In this document: positions 227-60,588 of the stretch, in pieces
Layout of the letters: each line of letters opens with the position of its first letter
How positions within the stretch are numbered: the stretch's first letter is position 1
Assembly: GCA_964558645.1 (NCBI GenBank)
Contig: CAZLEV010000012.1
Span: 1-64,000 of the forward strand
Direction of reading: 5' to 3'
DNA: 64,000 nucleotides
Origin: an uncultured archaeon
GTDB taxonomy: Archaea > Asgardarchaeota > Thorarchaeia > Thorarchaeales > Thorarchaeaceae
Made by a program: the position numbers and the translations under genes
The notes under the pieces: generated by a model
The model's input: only the letters and a program-made list of their open reading frames with translations
The model's database searches: none
Told to the model about the DNA's origin: nothing

Positions 227-724
227 ATGAGTCAAACAAAAGAAGAAGAGGCGATACTTGATCATTTGAAGCAAGTTCTGAGTGAACAGTGCCTACAGGG
301 AGGACAAGTGGCCCGTGAACGCCGAGTATTTGTCGAGATATCCAGAGATTGTCTTGTTGACACCGCTACTCTGCTTCACAGCAAAGGTTTCACACACCTA
401 TCAACAATCACTGGATTGGAGTTGGATGATGAGATAGAGCTGATATACCATCTCATGAATGAGGGGATCCACCTTGGTCTAAGGACGAAGCTGCCCCTGA
501 ATGACCTGCTCGTTCCAACTCTGACTAATCTGATTCCCGGAGCATCACTCTATGAGCGCGAGATACACGATATCTTAGATGTTACTTTTGAAGGGCATCC
601 AAATCTCACCAGACTCATACTTCCTGACATGTGGGACCAGAAGACCCCACCGCTACGCAAAAAACAATCAACTGAAAAAGAGCCAATCGATGTAACTCCA
701 CGAAAGAAAGGATCCCGAAGATGA
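227..724 (+). CDS. NuoC/HycE-N-like (30 kDa) subunit of a group 4 hydrogenase/complex I-like enzyme
   Basis: HLSTITGLE...ELIYHL...GASLYEREIHDILDVTFEGHPNLTRLILPD matches the complex I 30 kDa subunit signature. Confidence 0.9.
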   Translation: MSQTKEEEAILDHLKQVLSEQCLQGGQVARERRVFVEISRDCLVDTATLLHSKGFTHLSTITGLELDDEIELIYHLMNEGIHLGLRTKLPLNDLLVPTLTNLIPGASLYEREIHDILDVTFEGHPNLTRLILPDMWDQKTPPLRKKQSTEKEPIDVTPRKKGSRR

Positions 725-831
725 GAGTCCTCATTCAGTGAGTTATTGTTTCATTTCTGATTGCTACCATCTCGAGATTCATAGACCAAAGGCGTCACGA
801 CAGAGAGATGCCCCCATAGAAGGATTGATAT

Positions 832-847
832 ATCGAGATAGTTCGAT
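832..847. promoter_or_regulatory. Palindrome ATCGA-N6-TCGAT upstream of the Cys-rich operon
   Basis: Inverted repeat 20 nt before ATG 868, adjacent to TTATAT. Confidence 0.35.
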
Positions 848-867
848 GTTTATATGAGTTAAACGAG

Positions 868-1242
868 ATGGCCTCTGAGAAACCTGCATTCATAATGTGT
901 GTATGTACGGGCAAGTGTCCCGGATTTGAGAAGATGGACATCTGGGACTTCATTAACACCGTTCGAATGGTTCTCCCGGTGAAACATGGCGTAGTCCACC
1001 CGCAGCTATGCGAGGAAGACGGAGACCGATACCTCGAAGATGTGCTTCAGCCGGGACAGCAGGTCTTCATAGGAGGGTGCGCCCCAATAATGCAATACAA
1101 GCTCTTCCGAGACGCATTCAAGAATCGTGGGACGGATGTCAAGAAGGACTTGGTGCCAATCGATGTACGTGACATGACCACTGAGGAAGCCATTGAGAAG
1201 GTGACTGAGGAGTTGAAGAAGCATGGTTACGACGTCGAGTGA
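868..1242 (+). CDS. Stand-alone HdrA N-terminal-like Cys-rich protein
   Basis: CVCTGKC...HPQLC...GGCAP...FRDAF...IDVR resembles the HdrA N-terminal CxC...C...xACxP...F...NIR domain. Confidence 0.6.
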   Translation: MASEKPAFIMCVCTGKCPGFEKMDIWDFINTVRMVLPVKHGVVHPQLCEEDGDRYLEDVLQPGQQVFIGGCAPIMQYKLFRDAFKNRGTDVKKDLVPIDVRDMTTEEAIEKVTEELKKHGYDVE

Positions 1243-1531
1243 TTCAGGACCTGATACAACCTTCATGGGAGTCGACCGCAAGAAAATTCCTTGGTGGCCC
1301 TCCATAGATGCTGACAAGTGCGATGGATGTGATGGTGAATATGATTGCTTGAAGTTCTGTCCGCATCGCGTTTTCAAGCCTCTTGAGGATCCGTTCCTGG
1401 TCACTGTTGAAAATCCCTACAACTGTGTGGTCTTCTGTACGGCGTGCAAGAAGATGTGTCCTAAAGATGCCATCTCATTTCCATTGAAGGCGGACATCCT
1501 CAATATCATCAAGACCGAGCGAGCCAACTGA
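1223..1531 (+). CDS. Ferredoxin (2x Fe-S)
   Basis: CDGCDGEYDCLKFCP and CVVFCTACKKMCP...AISFP. Confidence 0.85.
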   Translation: MVTTSSDSGPDTTFMGVDRKKIPWWPSIDADKCDGCDGEYDCLKFCPHRVFKPLEDPFLVTVENPYNCVVFCTACKKMCPKDAISFPLKADILNIIKTERAN

Positions 1532-1542
1532 GGTGATGATTC

Positions 1543-2379
1543 ATGACCCGAAAGTACATCATCCCGTGTGCAGGATACGACCGACCTGGCGGTGAGGTCA
1601 CTAGGGCAGTAGTGGAACGATTGGTCAAGAATCATGATGATGTTGTCATAGGAAGCATGGGGGCTCTCTTTGCGGAGCGTCCTGGCGAGATGCGTGATTA
1701 TAGAACGTCTGAGATCATCTGTCTAGACGGATGTGGAACGAACTGTGCCTCAGAGATTGCACTGGCACGTGGACGTGAAGATATTGTGGTCATCTCAATC
1801 CCTGAAACGGTGGGTTCTACTGAGAGCTTCGAAGAGAAGGTCAGACTCGCAATTGAAGCCATAGAAGAGAAGTTTGAGGAGCTGGCAACTGAAGAGCCAG
1901 AGCCGGACCCTGAAAAGCCTTTACAAGAGATTGAGTACTTGGAGGAGAACTTTGACAAGTTCACACTCAAAGTGGCAGAGGGTTTCAAGTACTCTGATAA
2001 CGACTTCTGGGTCCGTATTGAAGGCGAGCATGCTCGAATAGGTGCCTCGGACTTCCTACAGCAGATGATGTCGGATGTCTATTTCGTTGAACTGGCAGAG
2101 CCAGGCACTCATGTGGAGATGTTCGATGATGCTGGAGCAATGGAATCGACAAAGATACTTGTTGAGATCATAGTTCCTCTATCAGGGACCATTGTGGAGG
2201 CAAATACGGTACTTGAGGACAGTCCTGAGCTTATCAATGAGAGTCCATATGATAGAGGCTGGCTCTACCTAGTCGAGCCCGATGATCTTGATGAGCTGGA
2301 ACTACTCGCTGAAGCCTCTGACTACATGGCAAGGGCCCTGAAGAAAGCAGAAGAAGAGATTGGAAAGAAGGTGGAATAG
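1543..2379 (+). CDS. DGC-domain / glycine cleavage H-like (lipoyl carrier) fusion
   Basis: N-terminal IPCAG...LDGCGTNCA (DGC); C-terminal RIGASDF...ESTK...PLSGTIVEAN..L..SPELINESPYDRGWL (GcvH fold, lipoyl Lys retained). Confidence 0.85.
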   Translation: MTRKYIIPCAGYDRPGGEVTRAVVERLVKNHDDVVIGSMGALFAERPGEMRDYRTSEIICLDGCGTNCASEIALARGREDIVVISIPETVGSTESFEEKVRLAIEAIEEKFEELATEEPEPDPEKPLQEIEYLEENFDKFTLKVAEGFKYSDNDFWVRIEGEHARIGASDFLQQMMSDVYFVELAEPGTHVEMFDDAGAMESTKILVEIIVPLSGTIVEANTVLEDSPELINESPYDRGWLYLVEPDDLDELELLAEASDYMARALKKAEEEIGKKVE

Positions 2380-2382
2380 TTA

Positions 2383-2766
2383 ATGAAGAAGATAGTAATC
2401 CCATGCAGTGGAATAGGAAAGGCATTTGGTTCGGTAGCAAGAGAAGCGACCTACCTGTTAACAGAGAACGAACACTCTGATGAATTCACAACCGTCTGTC
2501 TTCCGCTGTTGATGGTGGATGATGAGGAGTCGATACGGGCTGTTCGCGAGTCGGATGTCTATACCATTGATGGTTGCCCGAAGAAATGCGCATCAGTTCT
2601 CGTTCGACATGTAGGGGGCGACCCGGTCATGGAGTTGCTGACAGCCAAGGTGCTGGCCAAGAACAGGGGACACAAACCAGACACAGTACTCGACATAGGT
2701 GAAGGTGGCAAGTCCCTTGCTGAGGATATTGCCAAGTTGATCCGTAATAACGGGGGGACTGAATAG
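2383..2766 (+). CDS. DGC-domain putative zinc-binding protein
   Basis: IPCSG...VCLP...IDGCPKKCA. Confidence 0.85.
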   Translation: MKKIVIPCSGIGKAFGSVAREATYLLTENEHSDEFTTVCLPLLMVDDEESIRAVRESDVYTIDGCPKKCASVLVRHVGGDPVMELLTAKVLAKNRGHKPDTVLDIGEGGKSLAEDIAKLIRNNGGTE

Positions 2767-3182
2767 TGACATTCAAGCCCAAAGTCGGACTAATCTCCTG
2801 TAGTGGTGAGGCATGCTCAGGTGGGAGTGTCTCACGTGCTGTAACACTTGAGGTGCTCCATCATCTGAAACCAACTGAAACAGTGACCATCTGTCTTCCG
2901 CTCTTCTTGGCTGGAGATGAAGCAGAACGGGAGTTCGCCAATAACTTCCCAACAATCACCATTGATGGGTGTGGCAAGCTCTGTGCAGCGAAGGGTACTG
3001 AGAAGTACAGTAGCGAACCGGCTGTGAAGATCAACTTACAGGACTACGTTGAGGATGCCTGTTCAGCAGCCAATCCGAATTGGAGCGCTGAAGAGAGAAG
3101 TGATTTTGTCGAAAGAATCGCAAATGATATCGCAGAGCATGTTGAACGCCTAAGGGAGGAATGGGGTGATGACTATAACTGA
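2766..3182 (+). CDS. DGC-domain putative zinc-binding protein
   Basis: ISCSGEAC...ICLP...IDGCGKLCA; start overlaps the previous stop. Confidence 0.85.
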   Translation: MTFKPKVGLISCSGEACSGGSVSRAVTLEVLHHLKPTETVTICLPLFLAGDEAEREFANNFPTITIDGCGKLCAAKGTEKYSSEPAVKINLQDYVEDACSAANPNWSAEERSDFVERIANDIAEHVERLREEWGDDYN

Positions 3183-3453
3183 CAAGATTCCAGTGATGGT
3201 TTTCAATGCTGTTGGGGTATGTGGCTGCAGTCAGACCGGATTCCTCGGCAGAATCTATGAGGCTGTTAAGAAGCATAGAGAGATAGTGGAATACAAGGAA
3301 TACTCAGCCGACAGCGAGGTCGCCAACCAGTACGGAGTTCGTTATCGCGGTGTCGTGGTTGGCAACAAGCTGCTTGGTAGCAATCCAACTGCATCTAGGA
3401 TAGAAGAGGCGATTCTGGAAGAGGCTGAGAAGCAGGGCATAGAAGCTTCATAG
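3166..3453 (+). CDS. Small thioredoxin-fold-like protein (CGCS)
   Basis: VCGCS near the N-terminus; ANQYGV..GVVVGNK resembles the thioredoxin/glutaredoxin C-terminal half. Confidence 0.45.
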   Translation: MMTITDKIPVMVFNAVGVCGCSQTGFLGRIYEAVKKHREIVEYKEYSADSEVANQYGVRYRGVVVGNKLLGSNPTASRIEEAILEEAEKQGIEAS

Positions 3454-3612
3454 AGTATCAGGGGCACAGGACGACAGCTGACAAGTTGGGATGACCGATG
3501 CCCCGCCCCATATTCTGTTGGTATCAATCTGAACCAAACTCGATACGTGACAAAGGGATTGGGGCCCCTATCACATTGATAACTATGGAAGGACCGAAGG
3601 TGAGAACTCCGG

Positions 3613-4209
3613 ATGGAACAGAACAGTCAGACTGGCATCACAACTGAGCTAGAGCAAGACAAGGAAGGTCTTCAGAAGATAACCACAGAAGTCAGGCTTC
3701 AGCACGGATCCTCTATCCTGATAGAGTCCACCTGGAAATCTGATCAGGCTGGGTCAGTAGTGGAGAAGACAGGCACATCGATCCGAATCGGTGATTTCTC
3801 TGTATCCTTGCCCAACGGACCTGCACTCTTGGCACATGCCAACATGATTCAGATGAACCATAAGTCATCCTTAGGAGATTCGTCTAATACAGATGCAGTT
3901 GAACCTCCCCGAGAAGAAGTCAAGATGGTTCACATGGTGACTCGTCATGATGGAGTCGAAGTGTTCTTGGATCCTTTGACAGCGGCCTTTTGGGCTGGAA
4001 GTCGTGAAGGTGTCAAAGAAGTTTCACTACAGACAGCTGCTTTTGTCCTTAAAGCAGATACAGAAAGCGTAATCGACAGCGCCGTTGAGGCTTCGAAGAA
4101 GACTCGAGAAACAATTGACGTGATTCGTTCCATCGTGTCACTCGTGGAGCAGCTCGATGACCGTATTAGTGACATGGGCATTTCTACCGAAGAGCTGGAC
4201 GTGAGATGA
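3613..4209 (+). CDS. Hypothetical protein
   Basis: 198-aa ORF with no recognised motif, between the redox operon and the antiporter-like genes. Confidence 0.6.
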   Translation: MEQNSQTGITTELEQDKEGLQKITTEVRLQHGSSILIESTWKSDQAGSVVEKTGTSIRIGDFSVSLPNGPALLAHANMIQMNHKSSLGDSSNTDAVEPPREEVKMVHMVTRHDGVEVFLDPLTAAFWAGSREGVKEVSLQTAAFVLKADTESVIDSAVEASKKTRETIDVIRSIVSLVEQLDDRISDMGISTEELDVR

Positions 4210-4351
4210 TTATACGCCGACACAAATCTGAGTCCATATTGCAGACAGAGGGAAGGTCCTAGCGTCAAGAATAATAGGGGAGTGAAAAACTGAAAGTGCA
4301 TACGAGAGGCTGTGATGTTACATTGCAGGCTCGGATGAAGAGGTAAGCTAG

Positions 4352-6304
4352 ATGATAGACACTACTATACTGGGTGTGCTTGTTGTTGGCGTTCCTCTCG
4401 TCACCGGCGCGCTCTCTCATCCGCTAGGAAAACTATTACAATCAAATACTCTTTCAAGATGGGTCTGTCTTGCTGCGGTCCTCTTTGTCTTCGTTGGGTC
4501 GATTGCCTTACTTCCAACCATCCTCCTTTCGCCCTTGCAAATTAACCTATTCACACTTACCCTGCTGACAACAAACATTCAGGTCGGAATGTACATCGAC
4601 TTGCTATCCATTTCTTTTGCTCTCGTCGGGTCGCTATTCGGAGTCCTAGTCGTCGCATATGGCATTGACTACTTCAGGAGAACTGAAGATAACACTCACA
4701 AGTCAATGGCTGACAGGTCTCTTTCCATCTCAACGATAATGGTTGGCGGACTCCTCGGAACGCTCTTTTCACTTGATCTCTTCACCCTACTCATCTTCTG
4801 GGAGATAATGACTCTCTCCCTTTATGCATTGATCGTCCAAGAAGACAGTTCTGAAGCTGCTTTCAAAGCCTTCCTGATGACTCATGCAGGCGGTCTTGCA
4901 CTACTTGCACTCACCATAATCATCTCATCGACCTTGGGAACGCTTCAAATACATGAGATTGCTCAGTATCCGGGTCTGCTGGGAGCGGCACTGCCAGCCT
5001 TGATTCCTTTGTCACTACTTGCAGTCCTTCCCAAGAGCCTTCAGTTTCCGTTTCATACATGGTTTCCTGACGGGACTATCGCGCCAGCTTCAACCATGGT
5101 TCTGTTCCTCGCAACTGACTTGACCGGAATCTATCTTCTCCTGCGGCTTGTTGTACAGGCATTTGAGCCTGCTCTGGCTCTCTTCCCAACAGTGGCGCTT
5201 GTTCAGATACTGGGGAATCCGAGCGTATTGGGGCTAGTCATATCACTGGTGGGAACAGTTACCCTTCTCATCGGGGCCATTAACGCTGCAATAGAAACGG
5301 ATTTGCCCAGAATCATCGCCTACGGCGCTTCTTCTGAGCTTGGCTTTGTGTTTATTGTTCTGGGGTTGGAGTCACCACTGGGAGTCACTGCAAGTCTCTT
5401 CTATGCAATATCTCATACATTGGTTGTGGGTCTCCTGTTTCTGAGCGCAGGGGCGGTCATCATGGAAACGGGGATGCGCCACATCGACAATCTAGGTGGG
5501 CTCTATCACTCAATGCCTATTACCGCATCATGCACAGCAATAAGTGTTCTAGCTATAGGAGGGCTACCTTTGCTTAGCGAGTTCATCGCCAAGTATCTTG
5601 TTATGATGTCCGCAGTTGCGGCCCGTTCACCCTTCTTTCTGTCCGTTGCGATACTCGGGGAGCTAATACACATCGTGATAGCAACTCGAATACTCTATTC
5701 TGTCTTTCTCGTCAAGAGCGAAGTGACAATACCTTCTGACGTCACGGATCCTCCCATCTTTATGCTGCTTCCTATGCTTCTGATGGCCGGACTGATAGTG
5801 ATAATTGGAATCGACCCGATGCTTATTCTTGATGGTCTAATCCTCCCAAGTGTTGTTCAGCTCGGTATGTCCGTTCAAGACGTAATTCCCTTCCTAATCT
5901 TGCCAGTCTTCGGCGGAATCTGGAGTCCTATCATAATCACGACGGCCACATTGGTATTACTCTCTGTGGTCCTTGTAGCAGTCATTTTCTCGAAGAACAG
6001 AGGGATGTACAAGCACGAACCACATGAACAGGCTTTCAAGCCGTTCATCTGTGGAGAGGACAGCGGAGAGTATAGACTATCTCATTCAGACCTATTCTAC
6101 ACAATTCGATCAGACATCTTCAACGTGGAACGCCTTGTTCGGTCCACTGACATCGACCGACTCTATGAGTACCTCTCTAAGAGAGTATACGACGCGGGTA
6201 GGAGGCTACTGGAGCTGGATGTCCGGCATCAGTTTGCTCGCGCCTTCCTATGGTTCATCTTGGGGTTGACAGCTTTGCTGCTGATGGCTTTCTTGGTGGT
6301 GTAA
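4352..6304 (+). CDS. Proton-conducting antiporter-like subunit (NuoL/HyfB/MrpA-like)
   Basis: Multi-TM; FWEIM, KSLQFPFHTWFPD, LGGLYHSMP, EFIAK motifs. Confidence 0.9.
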   Translation: MIDTTILGVLVVGVPLVTGALSHPLGKLLQSNTLSRWVCLAAVLFVFVGSIALLPTILLSPLQINLFTLTLLTTNIQVGMYIDLLSISFALVGSLFGVLVVAYGIDYFRRTEDNTHKSMADRSLSISTIMVGGLLGTLFSLDLFTLLIFWEIMTLSLYALIVQEDSSEAAFKAFLMTHAGGLALLALTIIISSTLGTLQIHEIAQYPGLLGAALPALIPLSLLAVLPKSLQFPFHTWFPDGTIAPASTMVLFLATDLTGIYLLLRLVVQAFEPALALFPTVALVQILGNPSVLGLVISLVGTVTLLIGAINAAIETDLPRIIAYGASSELGFVFIVLGLESPLGVTASLFYAISHTLVVGLLFLSAGAVIMETGMRHIDNLGGLYHSMPITASCTAISVLAIGGLPLLSEFIAKYLVMMSAVAARSPFFLSVAILGELIHIVIATRILYSVFLVKSEVTIPSDVTDPPIFMLLPMLLMAGLIVIIGIDPMLILDGLILPSVVQLGMSVQDVIPFLILPVFGGIWSPIIITTATLVLLSVVLVAVIFSKNRGMYKHEPHEQAFKPFICGEDSGEYRLSHSDLFYTIRSDIFNVERLVRSTDIDRLYEYLSKRVYDAGRRLLELDVRHQFARAFLWFILGLTALLLMAFLVV

Positions 6305-6308
6305 GACG

Positions 6309-6953
6309 ATGAACATGATATTCTTCTATTTGATATTCGTTCTCGCGATTCTGACAGTACTAGCATGCTACATTCGCACCTCGGAACAGCTCATTCTGAT
6401 TCTCGTCTTACAGGCTAGTATTGTGACCATGGCATCTCTGGCACTGGCCCTAGTCGAGGTCTATATGGCCTGGAATGCCACGTCAGCTATCAAGATGATG
6501 GCGGCAGGAGTAGAGTTTTTCTTCGCCGCAGTGGTCACACCACTCATACTATATGCGGGTGTGAGGAAGACGCAGAACGTATCTGACTTCCCGAGAACAG
6601 GCATACGTGTCACAAGTTCTGTGATTCTTGTATTGATTGCCGCACAGTTCATGATTTGGATATGGATATGGCCAGTCGTACCAGGAGACCTCGTCTTCTT
6701 CGCACCTGTCACTCTTGTGCTCTCTATCGACTTTGTATTGATTCTAACACGTGACGATCCCTTGAAGATTCTTGTAGGCCTCAATATCGCAGAAACGGCG
6801 CTATTCCCGTTTTTCGAACAAGCACCCTTAACCATCGTATTCCCCCTGCTTCTTCTTGTTAGTCTCGTCAACTTGACAGGCGTGTATATCATTATCCAAG
6901 GCTATCGTGAATATGGTGTCTTGTCTGTAACAGAATGGAGGCGACTCGTCTGA
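6309..6953 (+). CDS. HyfE-like membrane subunit
   Basis: About 7 TM; L.LQA and LKILVGLNIAET motifs; lies between two antiporter-like subunits as hyfE does. Confidence 0.6.
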   Translation: MNMIFFYLIFVLAILTVLACYIRTSEQLILILVLQASIVTMASLALALVEVYMAWNATSAIKMMAAGVEFFFAAVVTPLILYAGVRKTQNVSDFPRTGIRVTSSVILVLIAAQFMIWIWIWPVVPGDLVFFAPVTLVLSIDFVLILTRDDPLKILVGLNIAETALFPFFEQAPLTIVFPLLLLVSLVNLTGVYIIIQGYREYGVLSVTEWRRLV

Positions 6954-8407
6954 TGGCGTCCCTCATCCCCCTCGCTGTCTTAGGCATTCCGTTGCTGGTT
7001 GCAGTGGTTTCTCTATTGATTGCTCGCTTGTCGCGCCTTGAACACCTTTTCGAGGATGTTGACAAACCATCTGTTGTTGTGGGCACAGCTTTGACACTGC
7101 TTCTTCTCATCGTCATATCCCCAGCGGTCTTCAGCGGGGTCATCTATGAGTTTCCTTGGGCCGCCATCAGGCTTGACTCAGGGAACATGGCACCCCTGCT
7201 TGCAATTGGAGTCATCTTCTTCCTCACTTCTATCTACAACATCAAGGCAGAACAGGGTGGACGGCTCAGCCCAGAGATCTATAATCTCGTTGTATTATCG
7301 TTCTTGACTTGCATGCTGGGATTAGTTCTAGTCTATGATATATTCGCTGTGGCTCTATTCATCGAGCTTGTCATTGCCGTTTCCGTTATACTGGTGGTGC
7401 ATGCAAAAGGAAAAGACGCAGTGGAAGCTTCATTTAAGTACGTCATCATTACAGCAGTAAGTGCCCTTCTTGTGATCCTCGGCAGCATCTTGGTCTATGT
7501 CACTGCTCAGACCTCAAACATCCATGAGATTTTGGCCAATCCTGACCCACTAGCAGCCGAGTCAGGACTTGTCATTCTCGTAGGTGTGTTCTTCATTGTT
7601 GGAATTGGTGCAGATATCGGGATTGCTCCATTCCATGGGTGGCTACCGGATGCATTCCCTGCATCGAAACCAACCGTCAACTGCCTCTTTGCCGCTGAAC
7701 CAATTGCTCTGTTTGTTGCATTGTATAGAGTCCTCCATCTATTGTATTCGGTTTCACCGTCAGCAGTCCTCCCATTACTAGTGATTGGTGTTGGCCTCTT
7801 CTCACTCGTTTTCGGGGCACTTCTGGCTTACGCACAGACTAACTTCATGAGATTAATCGCCTATGCAACCATCGAAGAGTTCGGGTATGTTATGATCGTG
7901 TTTGGGTTGTTCACGCCACTCAGCTATGCTGTTGGACAGCTCTACCTCATGAATGCATCAATCATGAAGCTGGCCATTCTTCTCTGTCTAGGATCGGTCA
8001 TTGTTGCCACTGGTACCATGGATATGAAATCTCTCGGGGGATTGGGCAGGCGGATGCGGCGTACTTCTCTGGTTTATCTGATTGCAATCCTATCTTTGGC
8101 CGGCATAGCCCCACTTAGCGGCTTTATCACAAAGTGGCTGCTCTTAGGCACCGTCTATCAGCATCTTCTTGTAAGTGTGGGAATGATGCCCGCTATCGGA
8201 ATGCTACTGCTACTTGTAAGCACATCGCTAGTTGCGTTTATCTTCCTAATCAGGTCATATCACCTGATTTTTGCAGGCCCAGAAACAGAATCGCTAAAGG
8301 ACACAAAAGAGATCCCCCGGGAGATGTGGATTCCGGCAGTCATAACTGCGGCCATCATCATCGCTTTTGGACTCATGCCTCATCTATTCCTAGCTTTCGT
8401 CACATAG
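6935..8407 (+). CDS. Proton-conducting antiporter-like subunit (HyfF/NuoM/MrpD-like)
   Basis: EASFKY, APFHGWLPDA, RLIAYATIEEFG, LAGIAPLSGFITKW. Confidence 0.9.
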   Translation: MEATRLMASLIPLAVLGIPLLVAVVSLLIARLSRLEHLFEDVDKPSVVVGTALTLLLLIVISPAVFSGVIYEFPWAAIRLDSGNMAPLLAIGVIFFLTSIYNIKAEQGGRLSPEIYNLVVLSFLTCMLGLVLVYDIFAVALFIELVIAVSVILVVHAKGKDAVEASFKYVIITAVSALLVILGSILVYVTAQTSNIHEILANPDPLAAESGLVILVGVFFIVGIGADIGIAPFHGWLPDAFPASKPTVNCLFAAEPIALFVALYRVLHLLYSVSPSAVLPLLVIGVGLFSLVFGALLAYAQTNFMRLIAYATIEEFGYVMIVFGLFTPLSYAVGQLYLMNASIMKLAILLCLGSVIVATGTMDMKSLGGLGRRMRRTSLVYLIAILSLAGIAPLSGFITKWLLLGTVYQHLLVSVGMMPAIGMLLLLVSTSLVAFIFLIRSYHLIFAGPETESLKDTKEIPREMWIPAVITAAIIIAFGLMPHLFLAFVT

Positions 8408-8551
8408 ACTTCCATCTCAGAATTCTAGCGAATTCAAACGTTGAAGCAAGAGGCTCGAGGCATTAATACTTCCTCTTCCCAGTGCAGTCAAGACTAGAGC
8501 ATCTGAGGAATCATGCGGTTCAACCAACCATCATGAACAATGCCATTCGAT

Positions 8552-9037
8552 TCAGAGGTCCTTGACCCGGTGGAACGACCAGTCAGATTTTGAGATAACA
8601 AGGCCGAGATCAACGACCAGTCTGTCGATGAGCTTCTGAATCGCGTATCCGCTGTTACTACTAATCCTGATCATCTGATAGGTCGTGGTGTAGTTAGACT
8701 CCTGTTCATCAGAGTTGATCTCGATCACGGTATGCGTGCAAGTAACATCACCGAGAATGCTAACTCGTATATTGGCATCGAGATAATCACCAGACAGTTT
8801 CTTGTGTTTTGAGTACTTCTTGATCTCAGCTTTCACAATCTTGTCGTTTTCTCTCTCTTCAAGTGACTGAGTAATCGGTTTCTGTTCCTTCGACACTTCC
8901 TGCGTATCATCCTCAATCCTCGTGAAGCCATACTTGTCCTCTAGGAGGTCACTCAGAAGAGGATGCTCAGTCGAGTGATACACGAGATTCTCCAGCGTTA
9001 TTGTGACAGTTTCTTGATTCACTAACAGACCCCACAA
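8552..9037 (-). CDS. Hypothetical soluble protein, last gene of the minus-strand hydrogenase operon
   Basis: 161-aa ORF starting 21 nt after the NuoI-like stop. Confidence 0.6.
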   Translation of the reverse strand: MWGLLVNQETVTITLENLVYHSTEHPLLSDLLEDKYGFTRIEDDTQEVSKEQKPITQSLEERENDKIVKAEIKKYSKHKKLSGDYLDANIRVSILGDVTCTHTVIEINSDEQESNYTTTYQMIRISSNSGYAIQKLIDRLVVDLGLVISKSDWSFHRVKDL

Positions 9038-9058
9038 AGGTAGAGACGCTCACCAGCT

Positions 9059-9406
9059 TTATTCAACATAGAGGCTCTCTCGATCATGTGTACCCATCAA
9101 ATACTGTGTTGATAGTTCAATAGCGTCCACAGGACATATGTCCCTGCACTGACCGCAAAACAAGCAGCGACTCAAATTAAACCTTACCTTCTTGTTCTCT
9201 TTCACCAATATTGCACCAGCCGGGCACATTTTGGTGCAAAGAAGGCATCCGATGCAAGTATCCCGATGGTAAACTATCTTCCCTCGTAGGCGCTTTGCTA
9301 CGGGTTCTCTCTCTTCAGGCGTCGCATCCCAGGGAATCGTATATGCTCTACGAAAGAGCGACCTTATTGCGTCACGCAGCATCTGAACCACTTTCAAGTA
9401 TATCAC
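9059..9406 (-). CDS. NuoI/HycF-like 2x[4Fe-4S] subunit
   Basis: RLRGK..CIGCLLCTKMCPAGAI...CLFCGQCRDICPVDAI. Confidence 0.92.
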   Translation of the reverse strand: MIYLKVVQMLRDAIRSLFRRAYTIPWDATPEEREPVAKRLRGKIVYHRDTCIGCLLCTKMCPAGAILVKENKKVRFNLSRCLFCGQCRDICPVDAIELSTQYLMGTHDRESLYVE

Positions 9407-10360
9407 CTACAGTCCTATCATCACAAAGAAGATCGACATTACCACAAAGAGCATTGGAATTTTCCAGTAGAACCTGAATGCCTGATATGGCTTCGAGCGT
9501 GCGAAGATTGTGCTGGGAAGCGTGGCAGCAAAAAACATCACAATAAATGCAAGCAGAAGTCGTATCATCATTGAACCATAAACACCCGTCCAACCAAATA
9601 GCAGGGGATGATTGAAGAAGAGCATTGTTGCTAGAAGAGCTAGATTGAACGACAGCATTGTCTTGCTGAGCTTCATCAGAGCAAGATGAGATCCTGTGTA
9701 TTCTATTAACACACCATGGGCAATCTCAGTCTTGGCTTCGGACACATCGAAGGGCACCACAGCCACGGCCGCAGGTATGCAAAGCACAAATGCTGCACCC
9801 GCAAACAACATGCTTGGATAAGCTAACACCATCGCAGTACCCAAGGATTCTTGCACCTGAATGATTGAATAACTTGCCAATGTGAACTCGGTCTTGAACA
9901 TTGTGAGTGCCAGCGACAAGATGAAGGTCAGCTCGTATGCCAGAATCATTGTTATACTCCTGGAAAAGCCTATGGCGCCGAAGGGATTCCCAGAAGATGC
10001 TCCTCCAACAGCGTACATCAATGAGGGTATTGTAAGCAGGTATAAGATCAAGATGATGTCTCCCTCAAGAGGTACTTGGAAAAGCACTACTGCCATTGTC
10101 ATGACAGAGCCAATGAGCGGACTGATGACAGCGATTACTGGGGCAAGAGTGAAAATGACAGACGCGGAGGTCTCTGGTACGAGTTGCTCCTTGCCAAACA
10201 GCTTTATGAAATCGTAGAAGGGTTGGACAATTGGGGGGCCTCTCCGATTTTGCATTCGAGCCTGAAGCTTCCTGCTCATGCCCTCAAACAGGAGTCCGAG
10301 GATGATTGACATCGGAACCAGGAGAACCACAGTTAGTATTAGGATGAGTGATTCCAGCAT
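9407..10360 (-). CDS. NuoH/HycD-like membrane anchor subunit
   Basis: RKLQARMQNRRGPPIVQPFYDFIKLFGKE; PFDVSEAKTEI..G..IEYTG. Confidence 0.93.
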   Translation of the reverse strand: MLESLILILTVVLLVPMSIILGLLFEGMSRKLQARMQNRRGPPIVQPFYDFIKLFGKEQLVPETSASVIFTLAPVIAVISPLIGSVMTMAVVLFQVPLEGDIILILYLLTIPSLMYAVGGASSGNPFGAIGFSRSITMILAYELTFILSLALTMFKTEFTLASYSIIQVQESLGTAMVLAYPSMLFAGAAFVLCIPAAVAVVPFDVSEAKTEIAHGVLIEYTGSHLALMKLSKTMLSFNLALLATMLFFNHPLLFGWTGVYGSMMIRLLLAFIVMFFAATLPSTIFARSKPYQAFRFYWKIPMLFVVMSIFFVMIGL

Positions 10361-10380
10361 CTCTTAATCATCCCTCTCCA

Positions 10381-11517
10381 TCATCTGTCAGTACAGCTCA
10401 TACAGGGGTCAATTGATGCAGCAATGACCGGAATATCAGCGATCTCACGGCCCTTCAACATAGTTGTCATGCTGATAATATTCGCCAATGTAGGGGATCT
10501 CACTTTCAGTCTTTCCAGCCCCTGTTTGCCATTTGTCTTGACATAATGAATCAACTCGCCCCGTGGTGCCTCGACACGAGACACAGCCTCACCGGCGGGA
10601 ATACTGCGCATGCGTTTCATGTCACTACCCTCGGCAACGATCGGCCCAGTGGGCATTTCATCGAGGACAGTTCGTATCAGTTTCGCAGACTCGAATATTT
10701 CAAGGTTCCTCACTTCGGTTCTTGCGAGACTATCTCCTTCTTCGCTCAATACTACATCAAAGCTGTCTTGCAGATCGTCATATGCCGCATAAGGATCATC
10801 CCTTCTAACATCGATTGGAACACCAGAAGCCCTTGCTGTTGGGCCAACCAGGCAGAGCTCTTTGGCTTGACTGGTACTCAACACGCCAACACCCTTCAAT
10901 CGCTTCACCGACGTTCTGTCCGCAAACACATCTTGTATGTAGGTTGCAGCCTTCTCGACCTCACCGATTGCTGAAACTATTTTTCGAGAGATATCATCGT
11001 CTATATCGTATCGAACGCCACCGATTGTGTTGTGTCCATAGTGGATTCTGTTTCCTGTGATCTCCTCAAAGAGGTCGTTCACCTTCTCTCGATGCTTGAA
11101 GGCATACATGAATAGGGTATCAAACCCGATTTCATATGCATTGATTCCAAGCCAGAGGATGTGGCTTTGGATACGTTCCATCTCTGAAAGAAGCACCCGC
11201 AGGTACTTGGCACGTTCTGGTACCTCGATCTCCCCTATCTCTTCTACTCCGTGGATATAACATGTTGAATGGCAATTGGAGCATATACCGCATATTCGTT
11301 CTGTAAGGAATATATTCTGCATCAGGTTTCGTGTTTCGGCTAGGGCCTCAATACCTCGATGAACAAAACCCACTCGGAGGTCCACATCTCCGATGCGATC
11401 TTTATCGATTACTATGTTGAACTGAACCGGTTCTTTGAGAGCAGGGTGGACAGGTCCAACAGGAATCCGAACATGTTTGGTGTTTGGTTGTGCTTCGTTA
11501 TTCGTTGTCATTCTCAT
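10381..11517 (-). CDS. Group 4 [NiFe]-hydrogenase large subunit
   Basis: GPVHPALKEP; L1 ERICGICSNCH; EAPRGE; L2 DPCMSCTDR (all four Ni-ligand Cys present). Confidence 0.93.
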   Translation of the reverse strand: MRMTTNNEAQPNTKHVRIPVGPVHPALKEPVQFNIVIDKDRIGDVDLRVGFVHRGIEALAETRNLMQNIFLTERICGICSNCHSTCYIHGVEEIGEIEVPERAKYLRVLLSEMERIQSHILWLGINAYEIGFDTLFMYAFKHREKVNDLFEEITGNRIHYGHNTIGGVRYDIDDDISRKIVSAIGEVEKAATYIQDVFADRTSVKRLKGVGVLSTSQAKELCLVGPTARASGVPIDVRRDDPYAAYDDLQDSFDVVLSEEGDSLARTEVRNLEIFESAKLIRTVLDEMPTGPIVAEGSDMKRMRSIPAGEAVSRVEAPRGELIHYVKTNGKQGLERLKVRSPTLANIISMTTMLKGREIADIPVIAASIDPCMSCTDR

Positions 11518-11938
11518 CAGACCCGTATTTCTTTTCTAATGCTTTGAGCACACCGTCCATGATTGCCTCTGGTTTCGGTGGGCATCCGGGGACATAGGCA
11601 TCAACAGGCAAGAGCCGGTCAACAGGACCTTCAACCATGTCACTACCAAAGACGGGGCCAGTCGATAGAGCGCATGCACCAATGGCAACGATTGCCTTTG
11701 GCTCCGGAATCTGGTCATAAACCATTATAGCTCTCTTGACCATCTGGCGAGTCATCGGTCCCGTGATGAGCAGAACATCAGCATGGCGAGGGGTTCCCAC
11801 CAATACACAACCCAGCTGCTCCAGATCAAATCTGGGGGTCAACGAGGCTACAATCTCAATATCACATCCGTTGCAGGATCCTGTGTTGATGTGAAATAGC
11901 CAAGGAGATTTCATTCGACTGTGTTTTGTTATGCTCAA
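11498..11938 (-). CDS. Group 4 hydrogenase small subunit (NuoB/HycG-like)
   Basis: GSCNGCDIE, TPRHADVLLITG, GACA, VPGCPPKP. Confidence 0.95.
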   Translation of the reverse strand: MSITKHSRMKSPWLFHINTGSCNGCDIEIVASLTPRFDLEQLGCVLVGTPRHADVLLITGPMTRQMVKRAIMVYDQIPEPKAIVAIGACALSTGPVFGSDMVEGPVDRLLPVDAYVPGCPPKPEAIMDGVLKALEKKYGSDENDNE

Positions 11939-60246: not shown

Positions 60247-60588
60247 GCGTTGACAGCATCCCTTCATCTTCGAGATTATGGTTTCCCAGGAATCACAGCT
60301 CTTGGTGGTATCCACTCATTGGTTCCTTCATCTCCAAGACGGCTTTGACCACACCTTGAATCAACCTCCTCATTGGTGCTTTACTCAATACGAACGATCA
60401 GAGCTTGCGAGAATCCGACAGACATCTGTCAAAGAGCCTCTGCTGTTTTAATAGCTAATTGGAGATTATATTTATCACATATCGATTAAAATCAATAATT
60501 ATGTCTGGTTTTATTAGTAAATTACATGAAAAATACAAGTAATGTTTATAACATACGAATCTCGCAAGCGCGAGAAGGTGCCACCATT

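Follow-up and report, generated by a model that had tools for sequence, protein, structure and literature searches.

The stretch of DNA analyzed here, called the window, comprises the first 64 kb of contig C12 in a 3.63-Mb genome bin of an uncultured Thorarchaeota (Asgard archaea). Its positions 868–3453 hold six consecutive genes on the + strand, here named p1 to p6, which code for small iron-sulfur (Fe-S) and cysteine-containing proteins and for a predicted lipoyl carrier. Together with a further gene, u198, they lie between genes of a hydrogenase, and the original prediction saw in them a lipoyl/thiol-disulfide or metal/Fe-S relay that was possibly the electron input module of this hydrogenase. 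All six open reading frames (ORFs) are present at exactly these coordinates. The features of the locus are the following:

745–4225 (approximate extent), + strand: insertion of about 3.5 kb between the NuoC-like gene and the first antiporter-like gene
830–847, strand not applicable: operator-like palindrome ATATCGAGATAGTTCGAT, overlapping a TATA-like TGATATAT box, 21–38 nt 5′ of the p1 gene
868–1242, + strand: p1, 124 amino acids (aa), free-standing HdrA N-terminal-like Fe-S protein with invariant C11, C13, C17, C48, and C71
1223–1531, + strand: p2, 102 aa, ferredoxin-like protein of the 2×[4Fe-4S] type
1543–2379, + strand: p3, 278 aa, DGC domain (residues 1–115), linker, and GcvH-type lipoyl carrier domain (residues 140–278)
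2152–2154, + strand: codon of the predicted lipoyl lysine of p3, K204 (ESTK motif)
2383–2766, + strand: p4, 127 aa, DGC protein with invariant C8, C39, C65, and C69 and a CSG..G...R loop
2766–3182, + strand: p5, 138 aa, DGC protein with the same four-Cys pattern as p4
3166–3453, + strand: p6, 95 aa, small protein with an invariant CxC motif (C19, C21)
3613–4209, + strand: u198, 198 aa, protein without cysteine and without family, inside the inserted segment

The successive junctions from p1 to p6 are a 20-nt overlap, an 11-nt gap, a 3-nt gap, a 1-nt overlap, and a 17-nt overlap. The tight coupling that had been predicted is real among the six genes and does not extend to those of the hydrogenase. 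Spacers of 143 nt to the NuoC-like gene and of 159 nt to the next gene flank the set, which is therefore packed internally, and not against the hydrogenase genes.

Distribution and Conserved Neighborhood

The homologs of the DGC–GcvH fusion found in p3 form about 100 protein clusters, with lengths all close to 278 aa. It is present in 6 of the 33 families of the phylum, and a scan of one genome per species found it in 117 places. Its hosts include Clostridium ljungdahlii, C. ragsdalei, C. thailandense, C. tepidiprofundi, Neomoorella, Moorella, and Formimonas, and also Acetobacterium, Desulfovibrio, Desulfofundulus, Actinomycetota, Armatimonadota, Synergistia, and Dehalococcoidales. The loci compared comprise 43 non-redundant Asgard loci, 40 bacterial-titled ones, and 23 further archaeal ones, and the genes p1 to p5 are colinear in all of them. 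The gene of p6 lies within the operon in Thorarchaeota and in a divergent ArsR operon in other Asgard lineages. The order of p1 to p5 and the lipoyl lysine of p3 are both kept across relatives, which bears out the idea of a coherent conserved module with a real lipoyl carrier.

The genes that recur next to this module are those of an arsenic regulon, and not those of a hydrogenase, as the context of the window had suggested. ArsR or ACR3 is found in the flanks of 38 of the 43 Asgard loci and of 29 of the 40 bacterial loci. Taken separately, ArsR is present at 33/43 Asgard and 26/40 bacterial loci, and ACR3 at 25/43 and 14/40, respectively. Linkage to both ArsR and an arsenite pump, one mark of an ArsR regulon, is thus found across relatives. 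Among Asgard archaea other than Thorarchaeota, the ArsR/SmtB gene is mostly divergent and adjoins the p1 gene. The neighboring ArsR proteins carry an ELCxC(D/E) motif in helix 3, which is the arsenite-binding site of R773 ArsR, and they score 43–64 bits on the BigR and TsoR models. The ACR3 neighbors score 428–471 bits against TIGR00832 (cut-off 283), and the ACR3, ArsA, ArsD, and ArsM neighbors are all arsenic-specific equivalogs above their cut-offs.

The bacterial loci provide some clear examples of this association. The cassette of C. ljungdahlii lies between ArsR, on one side, and a convergent ArsC-like gene, ArsD, ArsA (854 bits), and ACR3, on the other. The order in Formimonas is Lpd (507 bits), cassette, LplA, ArsR, ArsR, ACR3, and ArsM; in C. 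tepidiprofundi it is Lpd, cassette, and LplA, with no ArsR or ACR3 within 6 kb. A gene for a lipoate-protein ligase is adjacent to the cassette at 8 Asgard and 8 bacterial loci. Other recurrent neighbors are DUF5714 (MbdU-like metal-binding), DUF166, and a PF04060 Fe-S protein. No TusA or rhodanese is found among the recurrent neighbors, and no HdrB (CCG-domain) or HdrC-type protein is found either among them or in the cassette. At several Thorarchaeota cassette loci, a CcdA/DsbD-like membrane thiol-disulfide protein (a family assigned by eye) and a 191-aa partner are encoded beside ACR3; in the genome of the window this pair lies away from the cassette (C5:137589–138869).

A Putative Operator Common to the Cassette and the Arsenite Pump

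The motif TGATATATCGA..T....CGAT is located 5′ of the p1 gene in nearly all Thorarchaeota loci, where it overlaps a TATA-like box. Its half-sites, ATCGAA and TTCGAT, give it the look of an operator palindrome. The strict pattern derived from relatives matches the genome only once, at 830–847 of the window, for an estimated 0.015 or so matches expected by chance. A weight matrix also ranks this site first in the genome, at 37.8 bits and far above the rest. Part of the matrix comes from p1-gene sites, which makes the matches at p1 genes circular. The matches at ACR3 are not circular, and two of the next five matrix sites in the genome lie within 175 nt 5′ of the ACR3–ArsR pair on contig C15. Among relatives, the motif is also found 5′ of ACR3 (9 loci), of a DUF5714–LplA operon (2 loci), and of the p6–ArsR operon (2 loci). 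Hence, an operator common to the cassette and the pump gene, a second mark of an ArsR regulon, is present in 9 relatives. Elsewhere in the window, an 18-bit match to the matrix at 60474–60501 lies about 25 nt (from site end to start codon) 5′ of a long ORF starting at 60526, and is probably due to chance.

An Insertion in a Hydrogenase Locus

The surroundings of the cassette in the window are indeed those of a group 4-type [NiFe] hydrogenase. A NuoC-like gene (227–724) lies on one side and genes for two antiporter-like subunits (4352–8407) on the other, all on the + strand like the cassette, and a convergent set (9059–11938) codes for NuoI, NuoH, the NiFe large subunit, and NuoB. Both cysteine motifs of the metal site (RICGICSNCH and DPCMSCTDR) are present in this large subunit.

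The same hydrogenase is found uninterrupted in two other Thorarchaeota genera. In one of these genomes, G386, its subunits are 60–94% identical to those of the window, NuoC is directly followed by the antiporter genes, and the convergent NuoI–NuoH–large subunit–NuoB set is present. In the other, G324, the NuoC–antiporter order is uninterrupted as in G386, as far as the contig reaches. The u198 gene is missing from both clusters, and the whole genome of G386 lacks any DGC–GcvH fusion. The spacer at 4215–4351 of the window aligns with the spacer located 5′ of the antiporter gene in G386. Given these uninterrupted clusters, the cassette and u198 are an insertion of about 3.5 kb (roughly 745–4225, six genes plus u198), which entered between the NuoC-like and antiporter genes in the genus of the window (g1). 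A hydrogenase operon has thus been split by a recent insertion in the window.

Association of the cassette with the hydrogenase is restricted to this genus, where it was found in the window and in G384. No subunit of this hydrogenase is encoded near the cassette in any of the 42 Asgard loci outside the genus, and a NuoC ortholog is present in 8 of the 86 genomes of the family. The original prediction had named absence of linkage in relatives as evidence against a coupling with the hydrogenase, and this is the outcome of the neighborhood comparison. A C. tepidiprofundi locus initially seemed to lie in a hydrogenase neighborhood; its NuoC/D/I-like genes are split off from the cassette by a phosphofructokinase gene on the opposite strand, and their vicinity was judged a coincidence. 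What is specific to the window is therefore that the cassette sits displaced among hydrogenase genes, with ArsR, ACR3, and the ligase located elsewhere. Metabolic reconstructions of Asgard archaea should not include p1 to p6 among the subunits of a hydrogenase.

The Iron-Sulfur Pair p1 and p2

The protein p1 has no match in Pfam or NCBIfam. A profile made from 24 of its homologs matches residues 4–93 of HdrA (7bkb_A, E = 0.0018), and the alignment pairs all four cysteines of HdrA. For the predicted model of p1 (predicted local distance difference test score, pLDDT, of 89), the seven best matches in Foldseek are all HdrA chains, with template modeling (TM) scores of 0.60–0.64, and MvhD lies lower in the list. 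These matches in profile and fold justify the label of HdrA-N-like protein that p1 had been given. It has the N-terminal four-Cys Fe-S domain that is one mark of HdrA and lacks the two others, the thioredoxin-reductase-like flavin adenine dinucleotide (FAD) domain and the ferredoxin domains, its 124 aa ending where the FAD domain would start. Thus, p1 resembles the electron-entry module of methanogen Hdr (HdrA N-terminal domain and MvhD; 7bkb, 5odc, and 8rvu) in its fold and in the positions of four cysteines. It differs from this module in being a free protein paired with a small ferredoxin, not fused to a flavin domain, and in having a fifth invariant cysteine (C17), extra relative to HdrA, which forms a CxCxxxC motif. 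Across the 43 Asgard loci, p1 is the best conserved protein of the cassette (60–95% identity, vs. 30–86% for the p3 fusion). Its identity with the counterparts in other Asgard classes and in bacteria is 59–72% (59–69% in the bacterial loci).

For p2, the only Pfam matches are to 4Fe-4S families, Fer4 being exactly at its cut-off (21.1 bits) and the others below theirs. The p2 gene, translationally coupled to that of p1, is always next after it in the Asgard and bacterial loci compared. In a 437-aa metagenome protein (P0217), a p1-like domain and a p2-like ferredoxin are joined in one chain with an additional C-terminal domain rich in cysteines; this fusion supports a joint action of p1 and p2. 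Distant relatives of p1, collected in a search of 1.8 billion representatives (133 matches), are again paired with a small ferredoxin and lie beside ArsR, ArsD, ArsA, or low-molecular-weight protein tyrosine phosphatase (LMW-PTP) genes. On one metagenome contig (L092), such a distant relative is located directly 5′ of an aldehyde:ferredoxin oxidoreductase gene and adjoins ArsR–ArsD–ArsA–ArsA. This suggests that the oxidoreductase is a local source of reduced ferredoxin.

The DGC–GcvH Fusion and Its H Domain

The protein p3 matches two Pfam families, DGC (PF08859, E = 3.9e-9) and GCV_H (PF01597, E = 3.1e-31). In its predicted model (pLDDT 88), the H domain closely resembles the pea H protein (1htp, TM 0.94; 1dxm, Z 23.7), with about 40% identity. 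Both the H-protein fold and the lipoyl-lysine motif that define GcvH are thus present in p3. The lipoyl lysine is intact, as had been claimed: K204 of the ESTK motif is invariant in 26 p3 homologs of 29–72% identity. The H domain nevertheless scores below the cut-off of the TIGR00527 equivalog (110.8 vs. 115.85 bits).

There are three H-type genes in the genome: one next to gcvT on contig C6 (153.8 bits), a stand-alone one on C1 (132.4 bits), and the fused p3 (109.8 bits). The gcvP gene is also on C6, and Lpd-like genes are on C1. None of gcvP, gcvT, and lpd was found in the window, in agreement with the original prediction. A tree was made solely from 35 fused H domains, archaeal and bacterial, and from 22 H proteins that stand alone in genomes of the same kinds. 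A branch with 100/98 support separates 21 ordinary GcvH proteins from all 35 fused domains and one long-branch sequence. Forcing the fused domains together costs 0.9 log-likelihood units (approximately unbiased test, p = 0.43), so that their monophyly is not rejected, which is not a proof of monophyly. The long-branch sequence (G002:C1:1856358–1856789) is a stand-alone H protein of another Asgard family that falls on the side of the fused domains; it may be a diverged paralog or an artifact.

The H domain of p3 is therefore set apart from the housekeeping H protein, being outside ordinary GcvH on the tree in a genome that has a canonical gcvH beside gcvT. It had been envisaged that this domain might group with ordinary GcvH and be the only H protein of the genome; instead, it falls in a separate clade and is the third H protein. 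Moreover, in about 100 loci of relatives there is none where a fusion of the p3 type adjoins gcvT or gcvP. In C. tepidiprofundi DSM 19306 (L175), the only H protein is the fused one, and no stand-alone GcvH was found in the genome.

The LbpA proteins are described as having two conserved cysteines, near their N and C termini (PMC6067878). The H domain of p3 (residues 140–278) contains no cysteine at all, and hence lacks both of these signature cysteines.

The N-terminal DGC domain of p3 keeps three of the four cysteines in Thorarchaeota and all four in other lineages. The best fold match of this α/β domain is a modest one, to a small uncharacterized α/β protein (3pu6_A, Z 9.5). A resemblance of DGC to the LMW-PTP fold was also considered (Z 7.3); it is within the flavodoxin-like background (Z about 7) and was not taken as evidence.

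The Proteins p4, p5, p6, and u198

The proteins p4 and p5 match DGC in Pfam with E-values of 2.3e-14 and 2.3e-16. Membership in this family (PF08859, cut-off 27 bits) holds for p3, p4, and p5, at 36.9, 53.8, and 60.2 bits, respectively, and their cysteines follow the DGC/CxxxC pattern of the family. Four cysteines are invariant in both p4 and p5. Apart from these three domains of the cassette, the genome has no DGC domain. PDB sequence profiles gave only spurious repeat-protein matches for the DGC proteins. The ESM Atlas describes p5 as "zinc-binding/DGC" only, and NCBI names DGC proteins "putative zinc-binding protein."

The CxC motif of p6 is invariant among its homologs. This protein, labeled thioredoxin-like in the original prediction, has no match in Pfam, NCBIfam, or the PDB profiles, the search of the latter having returned only spurious repeat-protein matches. 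For u198, there is no match in Pfam or NCBIfam and nothing usable in the ESM Atlas; the gene occurs at 8 Asgard cassette loci, mostly after ArsR. None of p1 to p6 is assigned to the ArsC, ArsD, or thioredoxin families in Pfam or NCBIfam. In particular, none matches the ArsC families PF03960 and LMW-PTP PF01451, which does not exclude an analogous activity.

Relation to Known Systems

No description of the cassette was found in the literature, the coverage of which was incomplete, so that the term "undescribed" is provisional. By its design, the cassette seems nearest to the sHdr–LbpA system (Cao et al. 2018, PMC6067878; Tanabe et al. 2023, PMC10332631). That system, too, combines a GcvH-like lipoate-binding protein acting outside glycine cleavage with one or more Fe-S proteins derived from Hdr and with small cysteine-containing α/β proteins, and many loci also encode a lipoate-protein ligase of its own. 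This likeness, already drawn in the original prediction, is useful as a working analogy and does not hold in its details. The cassette has the HdrA N-terminal domain alone, with no FAD domain, HdrB, or HdrC, and its H domain is fused to DGC and lacks the LbpA cysteines. Neither in the cassette nor among its recurrent neighbors is there an hdrC1B1A-hyp-hdrC2B2 cluster, in or beside which LbpA is expected. Finally, the regulon of the cassette is an arsenic one (ArsR, ACR3, ArsA/D, and ArsM), not one of sulfur oxidation, and its hosts are strict anaerobes.

By its context, the cassette appears closest to ars operons with thiol accessory proteins. Canonical ars operons (ArsR, ACR3 or ArsB, an ArsC coupled to thioredoxin or glutaredoxin, and ArsD–ArsA) share with it an ArsR-type repressor with a CxC site, an operator common with ACR3, and cysteine-rich small proteins, and in bacteria the cassette is co-located with ArsA, ArsD, an ArsC-like gene, and ArsM. 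In contrast with these operons, the cassette has a lipoyl carrier and Fe-S proteins and has no member of the ArsC, ArsD, or thioredoxin families. No described ars system with a lipoyl carrier and Fe-S proteins was found in the literature searched.

The Lpd–DlaT–AhpD–AhpC relay of Mycobacterium tuberculosis provides a further parallel. There, a protein-bound lipoyl group acts as a redox shuttle from a reductase to thiol proteins of the CxxC type, in defense against peroxide. The cassette would share the lipoyl shuttle, and two bacterial cassettes have Lpd directly 5′. It would differ in its acceptors, the DGC domains, in its Fe-S input branch, in its presumed arsenic substrate, and in the absence of an E2 core protein.

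A Possible Role in Arsenic Defense

With moderate confidence, we interpret the six genes and u198 as a self-contained cassette of an arsenic (ArsR/ACR3) regulon, which was inserted with its own promoter and operator and does not code for hydrogenase subunits. This interpretation builds on the gene content and its conserved order, the arsenic-gene neighborhood, the cis-element in common with ACR3, the fact of the insertion, and the placement of the fused H domains in a clade of their own. The lipoyl carrier with its nearby ligases, the Fe-S pair, the four-Cys domains, the CxC protein, the arsenic-type repressor, and the operator together lead us to infer a reductive thiol relay, in which the lipoylation of p3, the direction of the electron flow, and the arsenic chemistry are all putative.

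In such a relay, the palindrome at 830–847 would be occupied by the CxC-type ArsR of contig C15 (47746–48030), whose gene accompanies ACR3, until arsenite releases this repressor and the operon is expressed. Reduced ferredoxin would give electrons to p2 (two [4Fe-4S] clusters), which would hand them to p1 (an HdrA-N-type [4Fe-4S] cluster and the extra cysteine) and from there to the lipoyl disulfide of p3. In some bacteria, the co-encoded dihydrolipoyl dehydrogenase could offer a route from NADH to the same disulfide. The swinging dihydrolipoyl arm would then trade thiol/disulfide or arsenic with the four-Cys sites of the three DGC domains and with the CxC protein. As an outcome, arsenate or an arsenic–thiol adduct would be reduced, or arsenite would be held on dithiols and passed to the ACR3 pump.

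Lipoic acid is a classic cellular target of arsenite. We tentatively suggest, giving it somewhat less than an even chance, that in many anaerobes (Asgard archaea, acetogenic clostridia, Moorella, Desulfovibrio, and Actinomycetota) it is the working cofactor of a dedicated arsenic defense. A lipoylated carrier fused to a four-Cys domain would be kept reduced by the ferredoxin/HdrA-N Fe-S pair, and either arsenate would be reduced without ArsC and thioredoxin, or arsenite would be chelated and delivered to the pump. This would represent new enzymology and a third non-canonical role of protein-bound lipoate. If the genomic context is a correct guide, a whole class of anaerobes would have an arsenic-handling system that is missing from textbook ars schemes and that, surprisingly, depends on a cofactor which is itself poisoned by arsenite. 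For the DGC domain family and the free HdrA-N-type protein, this would be the first function assigned. The presence of the cassette in cultured, genetically tractable acetogens, such as C. ljungdahlii, makes the proposed arsenic role directly testable.

A replacement of ArsC by the cassette was also considered. This idea is weakened by an LMW-PTP gene in the genome of the window (C2:423230) and by the ArsC-like gene in the same island as the cassette in C. ljungdahlii. Neither type of ArsC was found in the closed genome G117, a single genome that proves nothing.

Several points weigh against an arsenic cassette. The arguments for it come from gene context and motifs. Cd, Pb, Sb, or Bi can likewise be the signal for ArsR/SmtB proteins that have a CxC motif. 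In the genome of the window, ArsR and ACR3 are on C15 and the lipoate ligase is elsewhere, none of them adjoining the cassette, and the ACR3 promoter of this same genome matches the operator matrix weakly (19.7 and 16.6 bits). In C. ljungdahlii, the ArsC-like gene and ArsD are both beside the cassette, which therefore is no simple replacement of either. The co-occurrence of Lpd with p1 and p2 in two bacterial operons implies that the Fe-S pair is not just a substitute for Lpd, and it makes the proposed direction of the electron flow tentative. Finally, the four-Cys site of DGC could bind Zn or an Fe-S cluster, not arsenic.

One alternative, which we regard as unlikely, is a module that deals more generally with soft metals (Sb, Cd, or Zn) or with thiol stress, such as disulfide stress, and that is often located in ars islands without acting on arsenic itself. 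It could be, for example, a ferredoxin-dependent back-up reductant for thioredoxin or lipoyl enzymes poisoned by arsenic. The name given to DGC proteins by NCBI and the DUF5714 and DUF166 neighbors are consistent with such a module, and the CxC sensors of the ArsR/SmtB family answer to several soft metals. In addition, 5 of the 43 Asgard loci and 11 of the 40 bacterial loci have neither ArsR nor ACR3 in their flanks. However, the strongest and most frequent partners of the cassette (ACR3, ArsA, ArsD, and ArsM) are arsenic-specific, and it has its operator in common with ACR3.

It is quite improbable that the cassette is a relay of persulfide or thio-compounds resembling sHdr–LbpA. The DGC proteins would then be DsrE-like sulfur carriers, the lipoyl arm would carry sulfane sulfur, and the ArsR-type protein would sense sulfur species or thioarsenate. 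The parts do correspond (a lipoate-binding protein, an HdrA-derived Fe-S domain, DGC domains, and dedicated ligases). DGC belongs to the DsrE-like clan of Pfam, its best structural match is a small α/β protein (3pu6_A), and the ArsR neighbors have some similarity to the BigR and TsoR models. Yet the H domain is free of cysteines, and so without the signature pair of LbpA, and the recurrent neighbors include no HdrB or HdrC (CCG), TusA, or rhodanese. The recurrent partners above cut-offs are specific for arsenic, and the regulator has a metalloid-type CxC site, not the cysteine pair of BigR and SqrR.

The two remaining alternatives are very hard to defend. That p3 is an ordinary H protein of glycine cleavage or of a lipoyl relay, fused to DGC by chance and serving C1 metabolism or lipoate transfer, would fit its resemblance to the pea protein, its score close to the TIGR00527 cut-off, and the fused-only genome of C. 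tepidiprofundi, but disagrees with the canonical gcvH and the further H paralog of the genome, with the distinct clade of the fused domains, and with their constant separation from gcvT and gcvP. Similarly, an electron input or thiol relay of the surrounding group 4 membrane hydrogenase would agree with the ferredoxin-type carriers and with the position of the cassette between the NuoC and antiporter genes on their strand, repeated in G384 of the same genus, but is largely refuted by synteny, i.e., by the Asgard loci without hydrogenase subunits, the orthologous clusters without cassette, the flanking spacers and the cassette's own conserved operator, and the interposed phosphofructokinase gene at the sole bacterial locus near NuoC/NuoD-like genes.

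Other Features of the Hydrogenase Locus

The hydrogenase itself has a convergent layout of two operons (227–11938), with NuoC and the antiporter genes on one strand and NuoB–D–H–I on the other, and this layout is kept across genera (L107 in G386; L109/L110 in G384). At the end of the convergent NuoB–large subunit–NuoH–NuoI operon, on the − strand, a gene at 8552–9037 codes for a 161-aa protein that belongs to no family and has 78% identity with its counterpart in G386 and 93% in G384. Because it is conserved with the operon, this protein is probably an undescribed subunit or partner of the hydrogenase.

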